A DNA stretch of 64,000 bases. Source: Escherichia coli. Lineage in GTDB: Bacteria > Pseudomonadota > Gammaproteobacteria > Enterobacterales > Enterobacteriaceae. Below the pieces are notes generated by a model that saw only the letters and a program-made list of their open reading frames with translations, searched no databases and had not been told where the DNA came from. This document shows, in pieces, positions 17,162-64,000 of this stretch. The translations under genes were made by a program, and so were the position numbers. The stretch lies in assembly GCF_003334385.1 (NCBI RefSeq), contig NZ_QOWN01000010.1, one strand, 5' to 3'. How positions within the stretch are numbered: position 1 is the first letter of the stretch; each line of letters starts with the position of its first letter.

Positions 17162-18835
17162 ATGACTGAATCTTTTGCTCAACTCTTTGAAGAGTCCTTA
17201 AAAGAAATCGAAACCCGCCCGGGTTCTATCGTTCGTGGCGTTGTTGTTGCTATCGACAAAGACGTAGTACTGGTTGACGCTGGTCTGAAATCTGAGTCCG
17301 CCATCCCGGCTGAGCAGTTCAAAAACGCCCAAGGCGAGCTGGAAATCCAGGTAGGTGACGAAGTTGACGTTGCTCTGGACGCAGTAGAAGACGGCTTCGG
17401 TGAAACTCTGCTGTCCCGTGAGAAAGCTAAACGTCACGAAGCCTGGATCACGCTGGAAAAAGCTTACGAAGATGCTGAAACTGTTACCGGTGTTATCAAC
17501 GGCAAAGTTAAGGGCGGCTTCACTGTTGAGCTGAACGGTATTCGTGCGTTCCTGCCAGGTTCTCTGGTAGACGTTCGTCCGGTGCGTGACACTCTGCACC
17601 TGGAAGGCAAAGAGCTTGAATTTAAAGTAATCAAGCTGGATCAGAAGCGCAACAACGTTGTTGTTTCTCGTCGTGCCGTTATCGAATCCGAAAACAGCGC
17701 AGAGCGCGATCAGCTGCTGGAAAACCTGCAGGAAGGCATGGAAGTTAAAGGTATCGTTAAGAACCTCACTGACTACGGTGCATTCGTTGATCTGGGCGGC
17801 GTTGACGGCCTGCTGCACATCACTGACATGGCCTGGAAACGCGTTAAGCATCCGAGCGAAATCGTCAACGTGGGCGACGAAATCACTGTTAAAGTGCTGA
17901 AGTTCGACCGCGAACGTACCCGTGTATCCCTGGGCCTGAAACAGCTGGGCGAAGATCCGTGGGTAGCTATCGCTAAACGTTATCCGGAAGGTACCAAACT
18001 GACTGGTCGCGTGACCAACCTGACCGACTACGGCTGCTTCGTTGAAATCGAAGAAGGCGTTGAAGGCCTGGTACACGTTTCCGAAATGGATTGGACCAAC
18101 AAAAACATCCACCCGTCCAAAGTTGTTAACGTTGGCGATGTAGTGGAAGTTATGGTTCTGGATATCGACGAAGAACGTCGTCGTATCTCCCTGGGTCTGA
18201 AACAGTGCAAAGCTAACCCGTGGCAGCAGTTCGCGGAAACCCACAACAAGGGCGACCGTGTTGAAGGTAAAATCAAGTCTATCACTGACTTCGGTATCTT
18301 CATCGGCCTGGACGGCGGCATCGACGGCCTGGTTCACCTGTCTGACATCTCCTGGAACGTTGCAGGCGAAGAAGCAGTTCGTGAATACAAAAAAGGCGAC
18401 GAAATCGCTGCAGTTGTTCTGCAGGTTGACGCAGAACGTGAACGTATCTCCCTGGGCGTTAAACAGCTCGCAGAAGATCCGTTCAACAACTGGGTTGCTC
18501 TGAACAAGAAAGGCGCTATCGTAACCGGTAAAGTAACTGCAGTTGACGCTAAAGGCGCAACCGTAGAACTGGCTGACGGCGTTGAAGGTTACCTGCGTGC
18601 TTCTGAAGCATCCCGTGACCGCGTTGAAGACGCTACCCTGGTTCTGAGCGTTGGCGACGAAGTTGAAGCTAAATTCACCGGCGTTGATCGTAAAAACCGC
18701 GCAATCAGCCTGTCTGTTCGTGCGAAAGACGAAGCTGACGAGAAAGATGCAATCGCAACTGTTAACAAACAGGAAGATGCAAACTTCTCCAACAACGCAA
18801 TGGCTGAAGCTTTCAAAGCAGCTAAAGGCGAGTAA
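17162..18835 (+). CDS. rpsA: 30S ribosomal protein S1
   Basis: 557 aa; six tandem S1 domains; very strong codon bias. Confidence 0.98.
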
Positions 18836-48408: not shown

Positions 48409-48438
48409 CCGAATGGCGGCAATAGCGCCGCCATTCGG
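48409..48438. terminator. Shared hairpin between convergent pepN and ssuB (probable bidirectional terminator)
   Basis: Perfect 12-bp stem CCGAATGGCGGC-aatagc-GCCGCCATTCGG flanked by A/T-rich sequence. Confidence 0.55.
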
Positions 48439-48443
48439 GGAAT

Positions 48444-49211
48444 TTACCCCTGTTTTCTCAGGCGAGTTTCAGATTCACCACGTTGCATCACCCGTTGCAA
48501 CACCTCCGCTTCCAGCTCCGCTAATCGCACCGACCCTAATCGACGCGGACGGGGGATATCCACTGTCAAATCCAGACCAATTTTTCCCTCTTCAATTAAC
48601 AGCACCCGGTCAGCCATCGCTACCGCTTCGCTCACATCATGCGTCACCAACAGTACGGTAAAGCCGTGCTCCTGCCAAAGTGACACAATCAAATCCTGCA
48701 TCTCGAGTCGCGTTAAGGCGTCCAGCGCCCCGAGCGGTTCATCAAGCAACAATAATCCCGGTCGATGAATCAACGCTCTTGCCAGCGCCACTCGCTGTTT
48801 CTGCCCGCCAGAAAGTGCGGCAGGCCATTCCCCTGCGCGATTCTCCAGTCCTACCGCAGCCAACGCTCGACGTGCGGCATCGCGCCACTGGCCTTTAAGG
48901 CCTAACCCAACGTTATCAATCACCGATTTCCACGGTAGCAGACGCGCATCCTGAAACATCATTCGCGTGTCTTCCTGAATTTCAGCCAGCGGTGTGGTGC
49001 CCGCTAACACATCGCCTGCGGTTGGCGTTTCCAGACCTGCCAGCAGGCGCAGCAGGGTACTTTTGCCACCACCGCTGCGGCCCACCACCGCCACAAACTG
49101 ACCTGCCGGAATATGTAAATCCAGTTGGTTCAGGACGATATTTTCCGCGTAATGTTTGCTTACTGCATTGAGCAACAATGGCGTGCCCTGGTTCAGACGA
49201 GCAGTATTCAT
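48444..49211 (-). CDS. ssuB: Aliphatic sulfonate ABC transporter ATP-binding protein
   Basis: 255 aa; Walker [10 protein letters not shown], signature LSGGQKQR. Confidence 0.95.
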
Positions 49212-49999
49212 ACCGTGGCCTCCTTCAAATGATAAGCCGGGTTCCAGCGCAACCAGAGGCGCTCTAACAGCTGCGCGCTGACGTCAGCCAGTTTGCCGAG
49301 CAGGGCGTAAAGAATAATAGCGACTACCACCACGTCCGTTTGCAAAAACTCCCGCGCATTCATCGCCAGATAACCAATGCCTGAATTGGCAGAAATGGTT
49401 TCGGCAACAATCAGCGTCAGCCACATCAGGCCCAACGCAAAACGCACGCCGACCATAATTGAGGGCAGGGCACCAGGCAGGATCACATGGATAAACAGCG
49501 GTATGCCGGATAATCCATAGCTACGCGCCATCTCCACCAACCCGCGATCGATATTACGGATGCCATGCCAGGTGTTGATATAAATGGGGAATAGCGTACC
49601 GAGCGCCACCAGAAAGATTTTTGCGGATTCATCAATGCCAAACCACAAAATCACCAGCGGGATCAGCGCCAGATGCGGCACGTTGCGCAACATCTGAATT
49701 GAGGTATCCAGCAGCCGTTCTCCCCAGCGAGATAGCCCGCTAATCAGTCCCAAAATCAACCCCAGCGATCCGCCAATTGAAAAGCCAATCAGCGCCCGCC
49801 AGGAGCTGATCGCCAGATGCTGCCACAGTTCGCCGCTGGCGGAGAGCGTCCAGAACGCCGTCACCACTCCTTCCGGTGAAGGCAAAATACGCGTCGACAG
49901 CCAGCCAACCGAGGAGGCCAGTTGCCACACCGCCACGATGCCCACCGGTAAAAACCAGGGGGCAACGCGCAATAACCACTTCTTCACTGGCGTTGCCAT
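49208..49999 (-). CDS. ssuC: Aliphatic sulfonate ABC transporter permease
   Basis: 263 aa from [10 protein letters not shown]…; start overlaps ssuB region by 4 nt at 3' end. Confidence 0.93.
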
Positions 50000-50009
50000 T
50001 ATTTCTTCC

Positions 50010-51155
50010 TTAGCTTTGCGCGACTTTACGGGGGATAAAATCATTCGCCACCGCTTCGCCTTGCGGATTCAGCGGCTGCGGCTGGGGAATTTCCGGGATG
50101 GCGACATCCAGAAGCGGGAACAGCAACTCGCCAACCCGATACGCTTCTTCCAGATGCGGATAGCCCGAAAGCACAAAACTGTCGATGCCAAGCGCGGCAT
50201 ATTCGTTGATTCGCGCAGCGACCGTAGGACCATCGCCCACCAGCGCCGTCCCGGCACCGCCGCGCACTAAGCCAACGCCCGCCCATAAATTGGGGCTGAT
50301 CTCCAGATTGTCGCGCTTGCCGTTATGTAACGCCGCCATTCGCTGTTGCCCTACGGAATCCGTCCGGGCGAATGCGGCCTGTGCTTTGGCGATAGTTTCA
50401 TCATCAAGATGCGAGATTAACCGCTCGGCGGCCTGCCACGCTTCGTCGTTAGTTTCACGAACAATCACATGCAGACGAATACCGAAACGAATTTTGCGTC
50501 CATGCGCGGCAGCTTTCGCCCGCACTTGTTCGATTTTCTCTTTAACCAGTTCCGGCGGTTCGCCCCAGGTGAGGTAGAGATCAACCTGTTCTGCCGCCAG
50601 CTCCTGGGCGACATCTGACGATCCGCCAAAGTAAAGTGGCGGATACGGCTGTTGAATCGCCGGGAAGAGCAGTTTTGCTCCGCGCACATGAATATGTTTA
50701 CCGTTGAAATCGACGGTTTCTCTCTGCAATAAACGCCGCCAGACCTGGGTAAATTCCGCCGAGGCTTCGTAGCGCTCGCTATGATCAAGGAACACTCCGT
50801 CGCCTGCCAGCTCTTGTGGATCGCTGCCTGTGACCAGGTTAAACAACGCACGTCCATTTGAGAGACGGTCAAGCGTGGCGGCCTGGCGGGCGGCAACGGT
50901 AGGTGAGGTTACGCTGGGACGCAGGGCGACAAGAAACTTCAGCCGCTGCGTCACCGGGATCATCGATGCGGCAACCAGCCACGCATCTTCGCAGGAGCGC
51001 CCCGTTGGAATTAGCACACCGGTATAGCCAAGACGATCCGCCGCTTGCGCAATTTGTTGCAGATAACCGTGATCAACCGGGCGTGAACCTTCTTCCGTTC
51101 CCAGATAATGCCCGTCACCGTGGGTCGGTAAAAACCAGAACATATTCAGACTCAT
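50010..51155 (-). CDS. ssuD: FMNH2-dependent alkanesulfonate monooxygenase
   Basis: 381 aa; luciferase-like monooxygenase fold. Confidence 0.95.
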
Positions 51156-52111
51156 AATTGTTTTCCTTCCAGTTGAGTGGGCTGCCAGATGCGCTGGCGA
51201 ATATCGACTTTTTTCGGCACCAGACGATTTTCATAAAACAGATCTGCCGTTTGCTGCTGTAAGGCGGCAACCTCGGCGTTAACCGGTTTGATGGTGGTAG
51301 GAGGGCGATGATCTAAGTAAGAGGCAATCACCGGTGCCGGTAAGCCCATCGTTTTTGCCAGTAAAGCGATGCTTTGCTCGCGCTGGCTGCGGGTTAACGC
51401 ATCGGCCTCACTAAAGGTTGCCAGTACGCCCTGAATAAAAGCGCCGTTTTTTTCTGCATAGGGACGAGCTGCCAGATAAAACGATCCAGTTTGATTGAGA
51501 TCGGTGCCGTCTTTCAGCACCCGCACGCCGCCCTGTAATAATGCAGCAGAGTAGTAGGGATCCCAGATAGCCTAGGCGTCAACGTTACCTTGCTGGAACG
51601 CGGCGCGGGCATCAGCGGGCGTCAGGTAAGTGGGTTGGATATCGGTAAACTTAAGTCCGGCCTGACGCAGTGCACGCAGTAAAAGGTTGTGTGAACTGGA
51701 ACCTTTCTGAAAGGCAACTTTGTGACCTTTAAGATCGGCTACGGTTTTGATCGGGCTGTTTTCTGCCACCAGAATCACTTCGGCTTTGGGCTTCGGTGGC
51801 TCGACGCCCACGTACACCAAATCAGCCCCGGCAGCCTGGGCAAAGATTGGCGGAATATCCCCGGTACTGCCGAGATCAATACTGCCAACGTTTAACGCTT
51901 CCAACATTTGCGGACCCGCGGGGAACTCCACCCAGGAGATTTTTGATTCCGGATAGCGTTTTTCCAGTAACTGGTGGCTTTTTGCCAGCACCATACCAAT
52001 ACTGCCTTTCTGATAGCCTATACGTAACGCTTCAGGCGAGGATTCTGCAGCAACCGCAAAAGTAGAGACGCTAAGCAATCCCGCCAGCGCCAGTTTAATG
52101 ATGTTACGCAT
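51152..52111 (-). pseudogene. ssuA: Aliphatic sulfonate-binding protein gene interrupted by an in-frame amber codon
   Basis: Two same-frame ORFs (52111..51572 and 51526..51152) separated only by TAG at 51572-51574 (plus CTA); the frame between them reads AIWDPYYSAALLQGGV; signal peptide MRNIIKLALAGLLSVSTFAVA. Confidence 0.8.
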
Positions 52112-52679
52112 GGGCATTACCTCGCAGAGACAGAAGGTCAGGAACCTGAACATCGCGGCGGTGCAATGCCTGCCAGAAAGTTTCTAGCGCGGTATCAAGA
52201 CGGGTTTGCAGATTTGGCGTGAACTGGGGTCTGTGATGGTAATCAATTACTTGTGAGTCATCGGCAAACACGCCGTGCAGGATCTCCTGAGCTTTCAGTG
52301 CGCTTAAAACTGGTTTAAGGGCATAATCGACCGCCAGCAGATGGGCCACGGTACCGCCCGTCGCCAGCGGTAGCACCACTTTGCCTTGCAAAGCGCGTTC
52401 TGGCAGCAGGTCGAGCAGGGTTTTCAACGCACCGGAATAGGCGGCTTTATACACAGGCGTGGCGACAATCAGCCCATCGGCCTGTTGCAGCTGTTCGGTG
52501 AAGGTCTTGAGTGCCGGACTATCGAAACGAGCATAAAGTAGATCTTCCGGGGCGAAGTTTTGCAGATTCCAGTGATAAACCTCTACATCCAGGCCATTTA
52601 GTTTTTCCCGCGCATATTCCAGCAAGGAGCTGGAGCGAGAAGGAAAGCGAGGACTACCCGCCAGGGTGATGACACGCAT
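52104..52679 (-). CDS. ssuE: NADPH-dependent FMN reductase
   Basis: 191 aa; MRVITLAGSPRFPSRSS…; first gene of the ssu operon. Confidence 0.95.
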   Translation of the reverse strand: MRVITLAGSPRFPSRSSSLLEYAREKLNGLDVEVYHWNLQNFAPEDLLYARFDSPALKTFTEQLQQADGLIVATPVYKAAYSGALKTLLDLLPERALQGKVVLPLATGGTVAHLLAVDYALKPVLSALKAQEILHGVFADDSQVIDYHHRPQFTPNLQTRLDTALETFWQALHRRDVQVPDLLSLRGNAHA

Positions 52680-53035
52680 ACTCTCTCCTTATAACCAATT
52701 GTTCTTTTTTTTGTTAACATTGATAACAATTCGGTCAGTCTGTCGGAGAGACAAGAAAATTCCAAATATAAATTTTGTGTATCTTTTTCTGAAAATAAAC
52801 TAAAGAAAGGGCTTTATATATCACGCATATTTATTTATTGGATAGTCATTAGATGTTGAATCAATGAATTACTCGTTCAGTTAATATTTAAATATTCATG
52901 AAATCTATAAATTAAAGATTTGTCACTTATTGGATTTAGTATGCTTGATTTAAATGGCGGACAATTATTGTTATTATTAAGTCTAATGTCATTTAAAGGC
53001 ATTATCATATTTACGAAGAGATCAGGATGATAACG

Positions 53036-63011: not shown

Positions 63012-64000
63012 ATGAATTCTCTGTTTGCCAGTACGGCCCGTGGGCTGGAAGAGCTGTTAAAAACTGAACTGGAAAACCTGGGGGCCGTTGAATGCCAGGT
63101 GGTTCAGGGTGGGGTCCATTTCAAGGGCGACACACGGCTTGTTTACCAGAGCCTGATGTGGAGCCGCCTGGCCTCGCGTATTATGTTGCCGCTGGGCGAG
63201 TGTAAGGTTTACAGCGATTTAGACCTCTATCTCGGTGTTCAGGCGATCAACTGGACAGAGATGTTTAATCCTGGCGCGACCTTCGCTGTCCACTTCAGTG
63301 GTTTGAATGACACCATCCGCAACAGTCAGTACGGCGCGATGAAAGTGAAAGACGCGATCGTCGATGCTTTCACGCGGAAAAATCTGCCGCGTCCAAATGT
63401 TGATCGCGATGCGCCGGATATCCGCGTTAACGTCTGGCTGCATAAAGAAACCGCCAGTATCGCTCTTGATCTGAGTGGTGATGGTTTACATCTGCGTGGC
63501 TATCGCGATCGTGCTGGTATTGCGCCGATCAAAGAAACCCTGGCAGCCGCTATTGTGATGCGATCCGGCTGGCAGCCAGGAACACCGCTGCTCGATCCGA
63601 TGTGTGGTTCCGGTACGTTGCTGATTGAAGCAGCGATGCTGGCGACCGAGCGCGCACCAGGCTTGCACCGTGGGCGTTGGGGCTTTAGCGGCTGGGCGCA
63701 GCATGATGAAGCTATCTGGCAGGAAGTGAAAGCGGAAGCGCAAACTCGCGCCCGTAAAGGCCTGGCTGAGTATAGCTCTCATTTTTACGGTTCGGACAGC
63801 GACGCACGGGTGATTCAACGTGCACGCACTAACGCCCGTCTTGCGGGGATTGGTGAACTGATCACCTTTGAGGTGAAAGATGTCGCGCAACTGACCAATC
63901 CGCTGCCGAAAGGGCCGTACGGCACAGTGTTGAGCAACCCGCCATACGGGGAACGTCTGGACAGCGAACCGGCGCTGATTGCGCTGCATAGCCTGCTGGG
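63012..64000 (+). CDS. rlmL: 23S rRNA methyltransferase RlmL/K, 5' portion (runs off the window)
   Basis: Open frame from ATG 63012 to the window end ([31 protein letters not shown]…); absent from the ORF track because no stop is reached. Confidence 0.9.

Follow-up and report, generated by a model that had tools for sequence, protein, structure and literature searches.

Amber hotspots in lacI were reportedly placed at Dcm (CCWGG) sites by Coulondre, Miller, Farabaugh and Gilbert in 1978. The ssuA allele that we describe would resemble those hotspots in that C-to-T at the 5-methylated inner cytosine of CCWGG yields an amber codon, at a site that is recurrently mutated. It differs from lacI in the gene concerned, in its occurrence in natural populations instead of laboratory selection, and in that the change lies on the template strand (TGG to TAG, not CAG to TAG). 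[quoted passage not shown] Methylation-induced hypermutation in natural bacterial populations, seen as an excess of C-to-T changes in natural E. coli genomes where methyltransferases have their target sites, is reported by Cherry 2018 (J Bacteriol 200:e00371-18, as cited in PMC10710837). The ~19-fold enrichment in our window is the same phenomenon, although that work is reported as genome-wide statistics, unlike the ssuA case.

With respect to function, the allele would be comparable to engineered mutants that have lost the SsuABC binding protein (E. coli ssuABC deletions and an X. citri ssuA knockout). The in-frame ssuABC deletions in E. coli are said to have been made by Eichhorn et al. in 2000 (a study cited in PMC6906117). 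[quoted passage not shown] Such mutants are expected not to grow when alkanesulfonates are their only sulfur source, and the same is expected here. Unlike them, however, the allele is a spontaneous nonsense codon that keeps a 179-aa N-terminal fragment and may affect downstream expression.

We analysed a window of 64,000 nucleotides of E. coli DNA (contig NZ_QOWN01000010.1), in which the operon order is ssuE-ssuA-ssuD-ssuC-ssuB, flanked by elfA and pepN, as expected of the ssuEADCB context. At the protein level, none of SsuE, SsuD, SsuC and SsuB differs from K-12, and the natural TGA stop of ssuA overlaps the ssuD start (ATGA at 51155..51152). The features of the locus are:

52104..52679, minus strand: ssuE, NADPH-dependent FMN reductase, at the head of the operon; same protein sequence as in K-12
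52111..51152, minus strand: ssuA, 319 codons in K-12, with TAG at codon 180 here
51575..52111, minus strand: ssuA codons 1-179, signal peptide and N-terminal part, the truncated product P0001
51572..51574, minus strand: amber TAG for Trp-180 (TGG) of ssuA; mutated base 51573, G>A on the coding strand
51152..51571, minus strand: ssuA codons 181-319 and TGA stop, now untranslated, including a 124-aa GTG ORF
50010..51155, minus strand: ssuD, FMNH2-dependent alkanesulfonate monooxygenase, intact, no difference from K-12, with its own Shine-Dalgarno sequence GGAAGGA
49208..49999, minus strand: ssuC, ABC transporter permease, intact; same protein sequence as in K-12
48444..49211, minus strand: ssuB, ABC transporter ATPase, intact; same protein sequence as in K-12
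48409..48438, minus strand: terminator-like hairpin 3′ of ssuB, a 13-bp stem followed by a T-rich tail

The locus matches K-12 ssuA at 959 of 960 bases and is 99.9-100% identical to the ssuA annotated across thousands of E. coli genomes, so that the ORF pattern has not come about by chance. On the coding strand it departs from K-12 only at 51573, where G>A turns TGG into TAG; the minus strand reads ...GTT GAC GCC TAG GCT ATC TGG GAT... across the stop (TAG at 51574..51572). The upstream ORF (51572..52153) is listed with 193 aa from an upstream ATG, or 179 aa if counted from the annotated start (52111), and ends in ...QQGNVDA. The downstream ORF in the same frame (51152..51526) has 124 aa and a GTG start, and begins MRVLKDGTDLNQ... 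Translation through the stop (...GNVDA, stop, AIWDPYYSAALLQGGV...) is colinear with K-12 SsuA, the loss of W180 being the sole protein difference. A first-pass annotation, which had seen only the sequence and a list of its ORFs, had described two minus-strand ORFs of one frame split by a single TAG at 51572-51574, with the binding-protein frame resuming behind it. Both the sequence and the ORF list bear this out, as does the colinear translation, and the operon order agrees with its placing of ssuA upstream of ssuD, ssuC and ssuB. Its description of a one-codon nonsense change, neither frameshift nor deletion, holds, since all other SsuA residues are those of K-12; the TGG that it gave for K-12 is indeed found there; the single G>A on the coding strand is the only base that differs from K-12 ssuA; and the CCTAGG palindrome that it took the change to create can be read at 51571-51576.

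An uninterrupted 319-codon frame for the two-domain binding protein is thus lacking, as it stops at codon 180, and the locus is therefore a pseudogene of the ssuA family, not a functional member. Since the in-frame stop lies in an otherwise colinear, conserved ORF with intact orthologues, ssuA here is a real but ordinary pseudogene allele.

The W180 amber is already flagged as a pseudogene in public annotation. PGAP pseudogenes in two complete genomes, AOY60_RS08545 in H3 and HHJ22_RS08495 in SCU-104, have the same gene, codon and base change as the window and are labelled 'internal stop'; the H3 ssuA is 100% identical to that of the window over 960 bp. The window strain nevertheless differs from these two carriers, by 14-15 differences per 64 kb and, for SCU-104, by an additional 1-nt deletion there. 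Of the complete genomes matching the 61-mer around the codon, 2 of 4832 (~0.04%) have the window's exact sequence and 4830 do not; TGG was read directly at codon 180 in K-12, LC-1302-2020 and 720632. The exact 179-aa product was found on 196 public contigs (324 index blocks), and every locus inspected for this product had the internal stop and the downstream 124-aa ORF. The assemblies with the allele come from Mexico, California and many metagenomes and were made with differing assemblers. In the 64-kb comparison carriers differ at 14-19 positions, and some carriers (SCU-104, L005) have the downstream 1-nt deletion as a second lesion. The first-pass annotation had contained neither this existing pseudogene annotation nor the Dcm methylation hotspot and the recurrence of the allele.

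The ancestral context of the codon, GCC-TGG-G, holds a Dcm site, CCTGG. The change from K-12 CCTGG to CCTAG is G>A at position 4 of the site, which on the other strand (CCAGG) is C>T at the inner C, and the former site together with 51571 forms the sole CCTAGG of the whole 64-kb window. Each of the three CCWGG sites in ssuA yields an amber codon on deamination, and the W60 and Q92 codons also occur as TAG in nature, each making CCTAGG:

51572..51576, no strand assigned: former Dcm site, coding-strand CCTGG (ancestral) changed to CCTAG; opposite 51573 stood the inner cytosine of CCAGG on the other strand
51835..51839, no strand assigned: second ssuA Dcm site, CCAGG, codon Q92, intact here; amber GCC TAG G in other assemblies
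51932..51936, no strand assigned: third ssuA Dcm site, CCTGG, codon W60, intact here; amber TCC TAG G in other assemblies

We consider it about 80% probable that the W180 amber is a recent natural ssuA null that arose by recurrent deamination at a Dcm hotspot and abolishes alkanesulfonate uptake by SsuABC. Judging from the sequence context, deamination of 5-methylcytosine at the Dcm site is the likely cause of the change. The mutated G would have paired with 5-methylcytosine in the complementary CCAGG (methylation is presumed), deamination would have left a T:G mismatch and, where Vsr repair missed it, replication would have fixed CCTAG, an amber codon. Because the site is a hotspot, the same allele would have arisen repeatedly in E. 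coli and Shigella. Of 5426 complete E. coli genomes, 5359 (98.8%) carry the dcm-vsr pair; dcm lies outside the window, and its presence in this strain is assumed from that prevalence.

A census of truncated SsuA products is consistent with such a bias. The three Dcm sites were represented by 196, 54 and 47 contigs, versus a median of 9.5 at 18 non-Dcm nonsense sites accessible by transition (exact rank test, p=0.003; 0.00075 after the Q193 correction), where the census counts contigs, not independent mutation events, and is inflated by clonal expansion. The Q193 stop (61 contigs) had seemed a strong non-Dcm counter-example and was ruled out, as 23 of the 24 contigs read were contig-end partial genes. 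Conversely, P0003 and P0005 were suspected of being contig-end partial genes, and inspection of the DNA showed internal stops. In a six-genome comparison of the 64 kb, 6 of 51 substitutions fell on Dcm 5-methylcytosine positions, which make up 0.6% of the positions (~19-fold enrichment, p=7e-7), and the derived alleles were all T or A. An excess over comparable non-Dcm sites thus appears both in the local SNPs and in the census rank test, with the contigs of the latter not being independent events. Approximately 45% of the within-gene Dcm sites in the window are one deamination short of an amber codon and Dcm positions account for 12% of local SNPs, from which cytosine methylation emerges as a measurable driver of pseudogenes in E. 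coli. The finding that all three ssuA Dcm sites are in amber frame is not special, given the 45% background (P(3 of 3)=0.09).

TAG at codon 180 was found on at least six ssuA haplotypes, namely a K-12-like one and others 2, 7, 8, 10 and 50 substitutions away. Because codon 180 is a stop in at least six such independent genetic backgrounds, one of them 50 substitutions distant, we conclude that the W180 amber mutation is recurrent. This most distant TAG haplotype, a Shigella boydii type (ATCC 9905), has private SNPs on both sides of the stop, 8 bp before it and 25 bp after it. At one locus (L012) codon 180 is TGA, not TAG, which Dcm deamination does not explain, and another (L007), a metagenome scaffold interrupted by N gaps, is possibly chimeric.

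The recurrence could partly stem from relaxed or positive selection for ssuA loss, and not from mutation bias alone. That selection drives it, the loss of sulfonate uptake being neutral or advantageous in gut E. coli and Shigella and the Dcm sites being the easiest route, is possible but unlikely, and partly overlaps with the explanation that we prefer. It would account for the many ssuA nonsense alleles, among them the TGA at codon 180 and alleles outside the Dcm sites (9-22 contigs each), and for human gut samples as the source of carriers. SsuD is an O2-dependent monooxygenase, and would therefore be of little use in the anaerobic gut; the 14-19 differences per 64 kb among carriers also suggest that the allele may persist for long. 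However, the allele is rare (~0.04% of complete genomes), ssuD, ssuC, ssuB and ssuE are still intact in carriers, and we know of no selective benefit of ssuA loss. Moreover, selection alone leaves unexplained the lead of the three Dcm sites over others that would inactivate the gene just as well.

A single ordinary, non-hotspot mutation that spread by descent and recombination, with the Dcm context a coincidence, is improbable. The window, H3 and SCU-104 do have in common a K-12-like haplotype with a homopolymer indel at 52705, and the window and SCU-104 three more SNPs, so that within the K-12-like background these three could have one old allele in common rather than separate mutations. Nevertheless, one clonal origin for all carriers is ruled out by TAG on differing haplotypes: these differ at 2-50 positions within 960 bp, and with private SNPs down to 8 bp from the stop a single origin would need extremely short conversion tracts. 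The occurrence of both other ssuA Dcm sites as amber alleles, and the ~19-fold enrichment of Dcm positions among local SNPs, also argue against coincidence. Decidedly improbable is the bolder proposal that the Dcm sites W60, Q92 and W180 are a methylation-dependent off-switch, by which gut-adapted E. coli and Shigella discard sulfonate uptake adaptively and not by neutral decay.

With the W180 amber, translation would end after residue 179 of 319, and this two-domain periplasmic binding protein would lack its C-terminal 140 residues. SsuA is of class II among binding proteins, in which a hinge joins the two domains (PMC6906117); the E. coli SsuA structure 2X26 spans residues 25-319, and X. citri SsuA conserves W180. 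The SsuABC importer would be left without its substrate-binding subunit, and therefore aliphatic sulfonates other than taurine should be unusable as a sulfur source. Loss of SsuABC-dependent alkanesulfonate uptake is thus predicted. ssuD, ssuC and ssuB are intact but would lose translational coupling to ssuA, and their expression may also be lowered by Rho-dependent polarity over the 416 untranslated nt between the TAG and ssuD. This polarity on ssuDCB is plausible but speculative; a scan found no intrinsic terminator between the TAG and ssuD, and the run includes one candidate region (C/G ratio 1.65-1.87 over 51371-51232, a suggestive composition):

51232..51371, minus strand: C-rich, G-poor stretch (C 34-35%, G 19-21%), candidate Rho loading region

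Polarity is not required for the phenotype, because loss of the binding protein alone should abolish uptake.

Full-length SsuA might still be made if the amber codon were read through, by a supE-type suppressor tRNA or by programmed read-through, which we regard as highly improbable. supE would insert Gln at UAG and such alleles are present in 155 of 5426 complete genomes; these are, however, among the matches listed, K-12 laboratory derivatives only. Both complete carriers, H3 and SCU-104, lack supE and have wild-type glnX and glnV with CTG anticodons, and no tRNA gene lies within the 64-kb window. The extra downstream 1-nt deletion in SCU-104 and L005 is as expected of a dead gene.

A sequencing or assembly error, with TGG the true codon and ssuA intact, is hardly credible. 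The allele is rare (2 of the 4832 complete genomes matching the 61-mer) and a single-base difference is the commonest type of error, but the same change recurs in assemblies of independent origin (Mexico, California, many metagenomes) that different assemblers produced, its exact product is on 196 contigs, and a substitution outside a homopolymer is atypical of long-read errors. An error is excluded by these many independent assemblies with the identical allele. Finally, that the 179-aa and 124-aa fragments assemble into a working binding protein is extremely improbable: both are annotated as proteins by gene callers, but the GTG start (51526) has no Shine-Dalgarno-like sequence in the 20 nt upstream, the 124-aa ORF has no signal peptide that could take it into the periplasm, residues 180-195 would be lost, and PGAP annotates the locus as a pseudogene.

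The allele predicts that its carriers obtain no sulfur from alkanesulfonates, including the buffers MOPS, HEPES and PIPES, a prediction of modest practical value. It is a clean natural instance of a textbook process and implies no new biology. In a literature search, no paper was found on ssuA W180, W60 or Q92 amber alleles, and the only one bearing on ssuA pseudogenes was a pan-genome study in which ssuA and ssuE are named among the loci that are at times scored as absent. The W180 amber explains how strict pan-genome gene calls can miss ssuA.

The ssuEADCB operon of the window lies between elfA and pepN, in agreement with the RefSeq annotation of homologous records, and is interrupted in ssuA by a stop codon.

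Features of the ssu locus in the window (genes from RefSeq-annotated homologues, ORFs from the ORF list, codon and palindrome from the window sequence)
52679..52104, minus strand, ssuE
52111..51152, minus strand, ssuA
51155..50010, minus strand, ssuD
49999..49208, minus strand, ssuC
49211..48444, minus strand, ssuB
51572..52153, minus strand, upstream ORF, ending ...QQGNVDA*
51574..51572, minus strand, amber codon TAG
51152..51526, minus strand, GTG-initiated downstream ORF in the same frame, starting MRVLKDGTDLNQ...
51571-51576, CCTAGG palindrome

The minus strand reads ...GTT GAC GCC TAG GCT ATC TGG GAT... at this codon. Translated from the annotated start at 52111, all 319 codons are colinear with K-12 SsuA and W180* is the sole difference; likewise, the 960-bp gene differs from K-12 DNA at one position, a coding-strand G>A at 51573. 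The first-pass annotation had described two same-frame minus-strand ORFs split by a single TAG, a binding-protein frame that runs on past it, a one-codon nonsense change from TGG by a single G>A that creates CCTAGG, and a position of ssuA ahead of ssuD, ssuC and ssuB. Its description and interpretation of the locus were correct; absent from it were the Dcm hotspot, the recurrent circulating allele and the existing public pseudogene annotation considered below. The SsuE, SsuD, SsuC and SsuB proteins are identical to those of K-12, and since ssuA alone is damaged, by one base, the lesion appears evolutionarily recent in the window lineage. The window ssuA is an ordinary nonsense pseudogene, probably from a textbook mutational mechanism.

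A 61-mer centred on codon 180 was searched in 5426 complete E. coli genomes and found a match in 4832, two of which matched exactly: H3 (human faeces, Mexico), where PGAP labels ssuA a pseudogene ("internal stop"), and SCU-104 (rectal swab, California), where it is annotated "frameshifted; internal stop". The window is neither strain, as it differs from them at 14 and 15 positions over 64 kb, respectively. The exact 179-aa truncated product, which has NCBI protein accessions, was found in 196 contigs (324 index blocks), many human gut metagenome assemblies among them, and all loci read had the internal TAG, then the 124-aa remnant ORF, then ssuD. This rules out an error of sequencing reads or assembly, and the allele is circulating and already flagged in public annotation.

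The ancestral GCC-TGG-G holds CCTGG, a Dcm site (CCWGG), and Dcm methylates the inner cytosine of this site on both strands. The changed G of codon 180 would lie opposite the methylated C of CCAGG on the complementary strand. When 5-methylcytosine is deaminated to thymine, it leaves a T:G mismatch in CTWGG/CCWGG that is a substrate for Vsr very-short-patch (VSP) repair and, if unrepaired, results in a C-to-T transition (PMC2715241). Seen on the coding strand, such an event would turn CCTGG into CCTAG, and hence TGG into TAG.

Several results support deamination at the Dcm site as the origin of the W180 amber. Deamination at each of the three Dcm sites of ssuA yields an amber codon (W60, Q92 and W180), and all three alleles occur in public assemblies, with xCC-TAG-G, making CCTAGG, at the DNA level. 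We took a census of the exact N-terminal products of the 21 ssuA codons one transition from a stop (K-12 protein haplotype). The Dcm sites gave 196, 54 and 47 contigs, versus 61, 22, 22, 20, 17, 16, 13, 10, 10, 9, 1, 1 and six zeros for the 18 non-Dcm sites. The count of 61, for Q193, is an artefact, since in 23 of the 24 cases read the contig itself stops at this point. An exact one-sided rank test (p=0.003 uncorrected, 0.00075 with Q193 corrected) is supportive rather than decisive, because contig counts are not independent events. Over the whole 64 kb, 6 of the 51 substitution sites in a six-genome comparison (17332, 18308, 32359, 49188, 51573 and 57832) coincide with Dcm 5-methylcytosines; these account for 388 of 64,000 positions (0.6%), so the enrichment is ~19-fold (binomial p=7e-7). 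All six derived alleles are T or A, and the substitutions other than the ssuA substitution each occur in a single genome. The dcm-vsr genes are present in 5359 of the 5426 complete genomes. lacI has classical amber hotspots, which the ssuA pattern matches. [quoted passage not shown]

A single deamination would give an in-frame TAG at about 45% of the Dcm sites within long ORFs of the window, and against this background ssuA is not unusual in having three of three amber-prone sites (P ~0.09). The contigs that mimic a Q193 truncation (L044-L050) come from unrelated assemblies (Logan, ENA, JGI) and end at ssuA position 577/578 (~51534), where a repeat or the edge of a strain-variable region may lie. 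CCTAGG occurs once in the 64 kb, in the copy made by the ssuA mutation, versus ~16 expected from base composition. CTAG occurs 8 times versus ~250 expected, and CCWGG 194 times, a pattern consistent with VSP repair turning CTWGG back into CCWGG. A synonymous CAG>CAA in rpsA at 17332, private to the window among the six genomes, likewise affects a Dcm 5-methylcytosine (CCAGG>CCAAG), and would thus be a second deamination-type mutation in this lineage.

Fetched homologous loci were aligned over ssuA, and differences were counted relative to the window.

Codon 180 of ssuA by haplotype
K-12-like haplotype (window, H3, SCU-104, L004-L006, L008), TAG
L014, 2 differences, TAG
L013, 7 differences, TAG
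L007, 8 differences, TAG
L011, 10 differences, TAG
L009/L010, Shigella boydii ATCC 9905 type, 50 differences, TAG
L012 (GCA_038073245.1), one other position different from L013, TGA

With a stop at codon 180 on several DNA haplotypes, the mutation is recurrent. In the S. boydii type, private SNPs flank the stop, 8 bp upstream of it and 25 bp downstream, so recombination of any ordinary tract length cannot have brought in the TAG. L007 is a metagenome scaffold with blocks of Ns, flanked by short duplications, at the ssuA/ssuD junction and in elfA. They resemble artefacts of scaffolding, and the haplotype deserves less weight as evidence of recurrence. The TGA of L012 is an independent knockout at the same Trp codon; here the outer, unmethylated cytosine is changed, which the Dcm mechanism does not explain.

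Within the K-12-like group, TAG carriers are separated from one another by 14-19 differences per 64 kb, and from the non-carriers (K-12, LC-1302-2020 and 720632) by 18-29. Three further derived SNPs are common to the window and SCU-104; H3 has no more in common with these two than the TAG and a homopolymer indel, which is missing from the TAG-carrying L004 and L008. This ambiguous picture could reflect a single allele of some age or several separate hits. The indel is in an A-run at 52705-52712, within the 5' leader of ssuE and ~30 nt before the start, which is A8 in the window, H3, SCU-104, L005 and L006, and A7 in K-12, LC-1302-2020, 720632, L004, L007 and L008, and so is not strictly linked to the ssuA TAG.

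In the SsuABC alkanesulfonate importer, substrate is bound in the periplasm by SsuA, a class II binding protein with two hinge-joined domains (PMC6906117). The E. coli structure (2X26) spans residues 25-319. W180 belongs to a motif, VDAWAIWDP, that is conserved in the SsuA of Xanthomonas citri. The stop after residue 179 removes 140 residues. The GTG-initiated 124-aa ORF has no signal peptide, and no recognisable Shine-Dalgarno sequence was found for its start, so it would be unable to rescue function. When HEPES, MOPS or MES was the only source of sulfur, an X. citri ssuA knockout did not grow, and ssuA alone complemented it (PMC3839906). The amber allele is predicted to prevent growth on aliphatic sulfonates, taurine excepted. 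In-frame deletions of E. coli ssuA, ssuB and ssuC reportedly behave like the X. citri knockout, and TauABC components are said to be no substitute for SsuABC (both attributed to Eichhorn et al. 2000). The predicted phenotype gives the allele a modest value, as does its use as a neat example from nature of how methylation can drive the formation of pseudogenes.

SCU-104 (L003) and the metagenome contig L005 have a 1-nt deletion at the equivalent of 51453, downstream of the ssuA stop. A second lesion is expected in a gene already dead, and the shared deletion represents secondary decay in one carrier sub-lineage.

The natural stop of ssuA overlaps the ssuD start (ATGA), and the amber codon leaves 416 nt upstream of ssuD untranslated, so translational coupling of the two genes would be lost. 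No intrinsic terminator was found in this stretch. It contains a C-rich, G-poor segment at 51371-51232 (C/G 1.65-1.87), which makes Rho-dependent polarity possible; ssuD retains its own Shine-Dalgarno sequence (GGAAGGA). Polarity is not required to explain the predicted loss of function.

No tRNA gene was found within the 64-kb window. The amber suppressor supE (glnV or glnX with a CUA anticodon) occurs in 155 of the 5426 complete genomes, and its carriers among the 60 matches listed all look like K-12 laboratory derivatives (e.g. C600, DH5alpha, DH1 and J53). There was no supE in H3 or SCU-104, both of which have CTG anticodons in glnX and glnV.

The window strain has three private missense changes, Pro>Leu in elfD (53827), Ala>Glu in ycaI (21045) and Asp>Glu at 63650 (probably rlmKL), none of obvious significance. 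The neighbouring elf fimbrial operon also has pseudogenes in related strains, elfC being annotated 'internal stop' in 720632 (L022) and elfG 'frameshifted' in SCU-104 (L019); elfC of the window is an intact 866-aa ORF.
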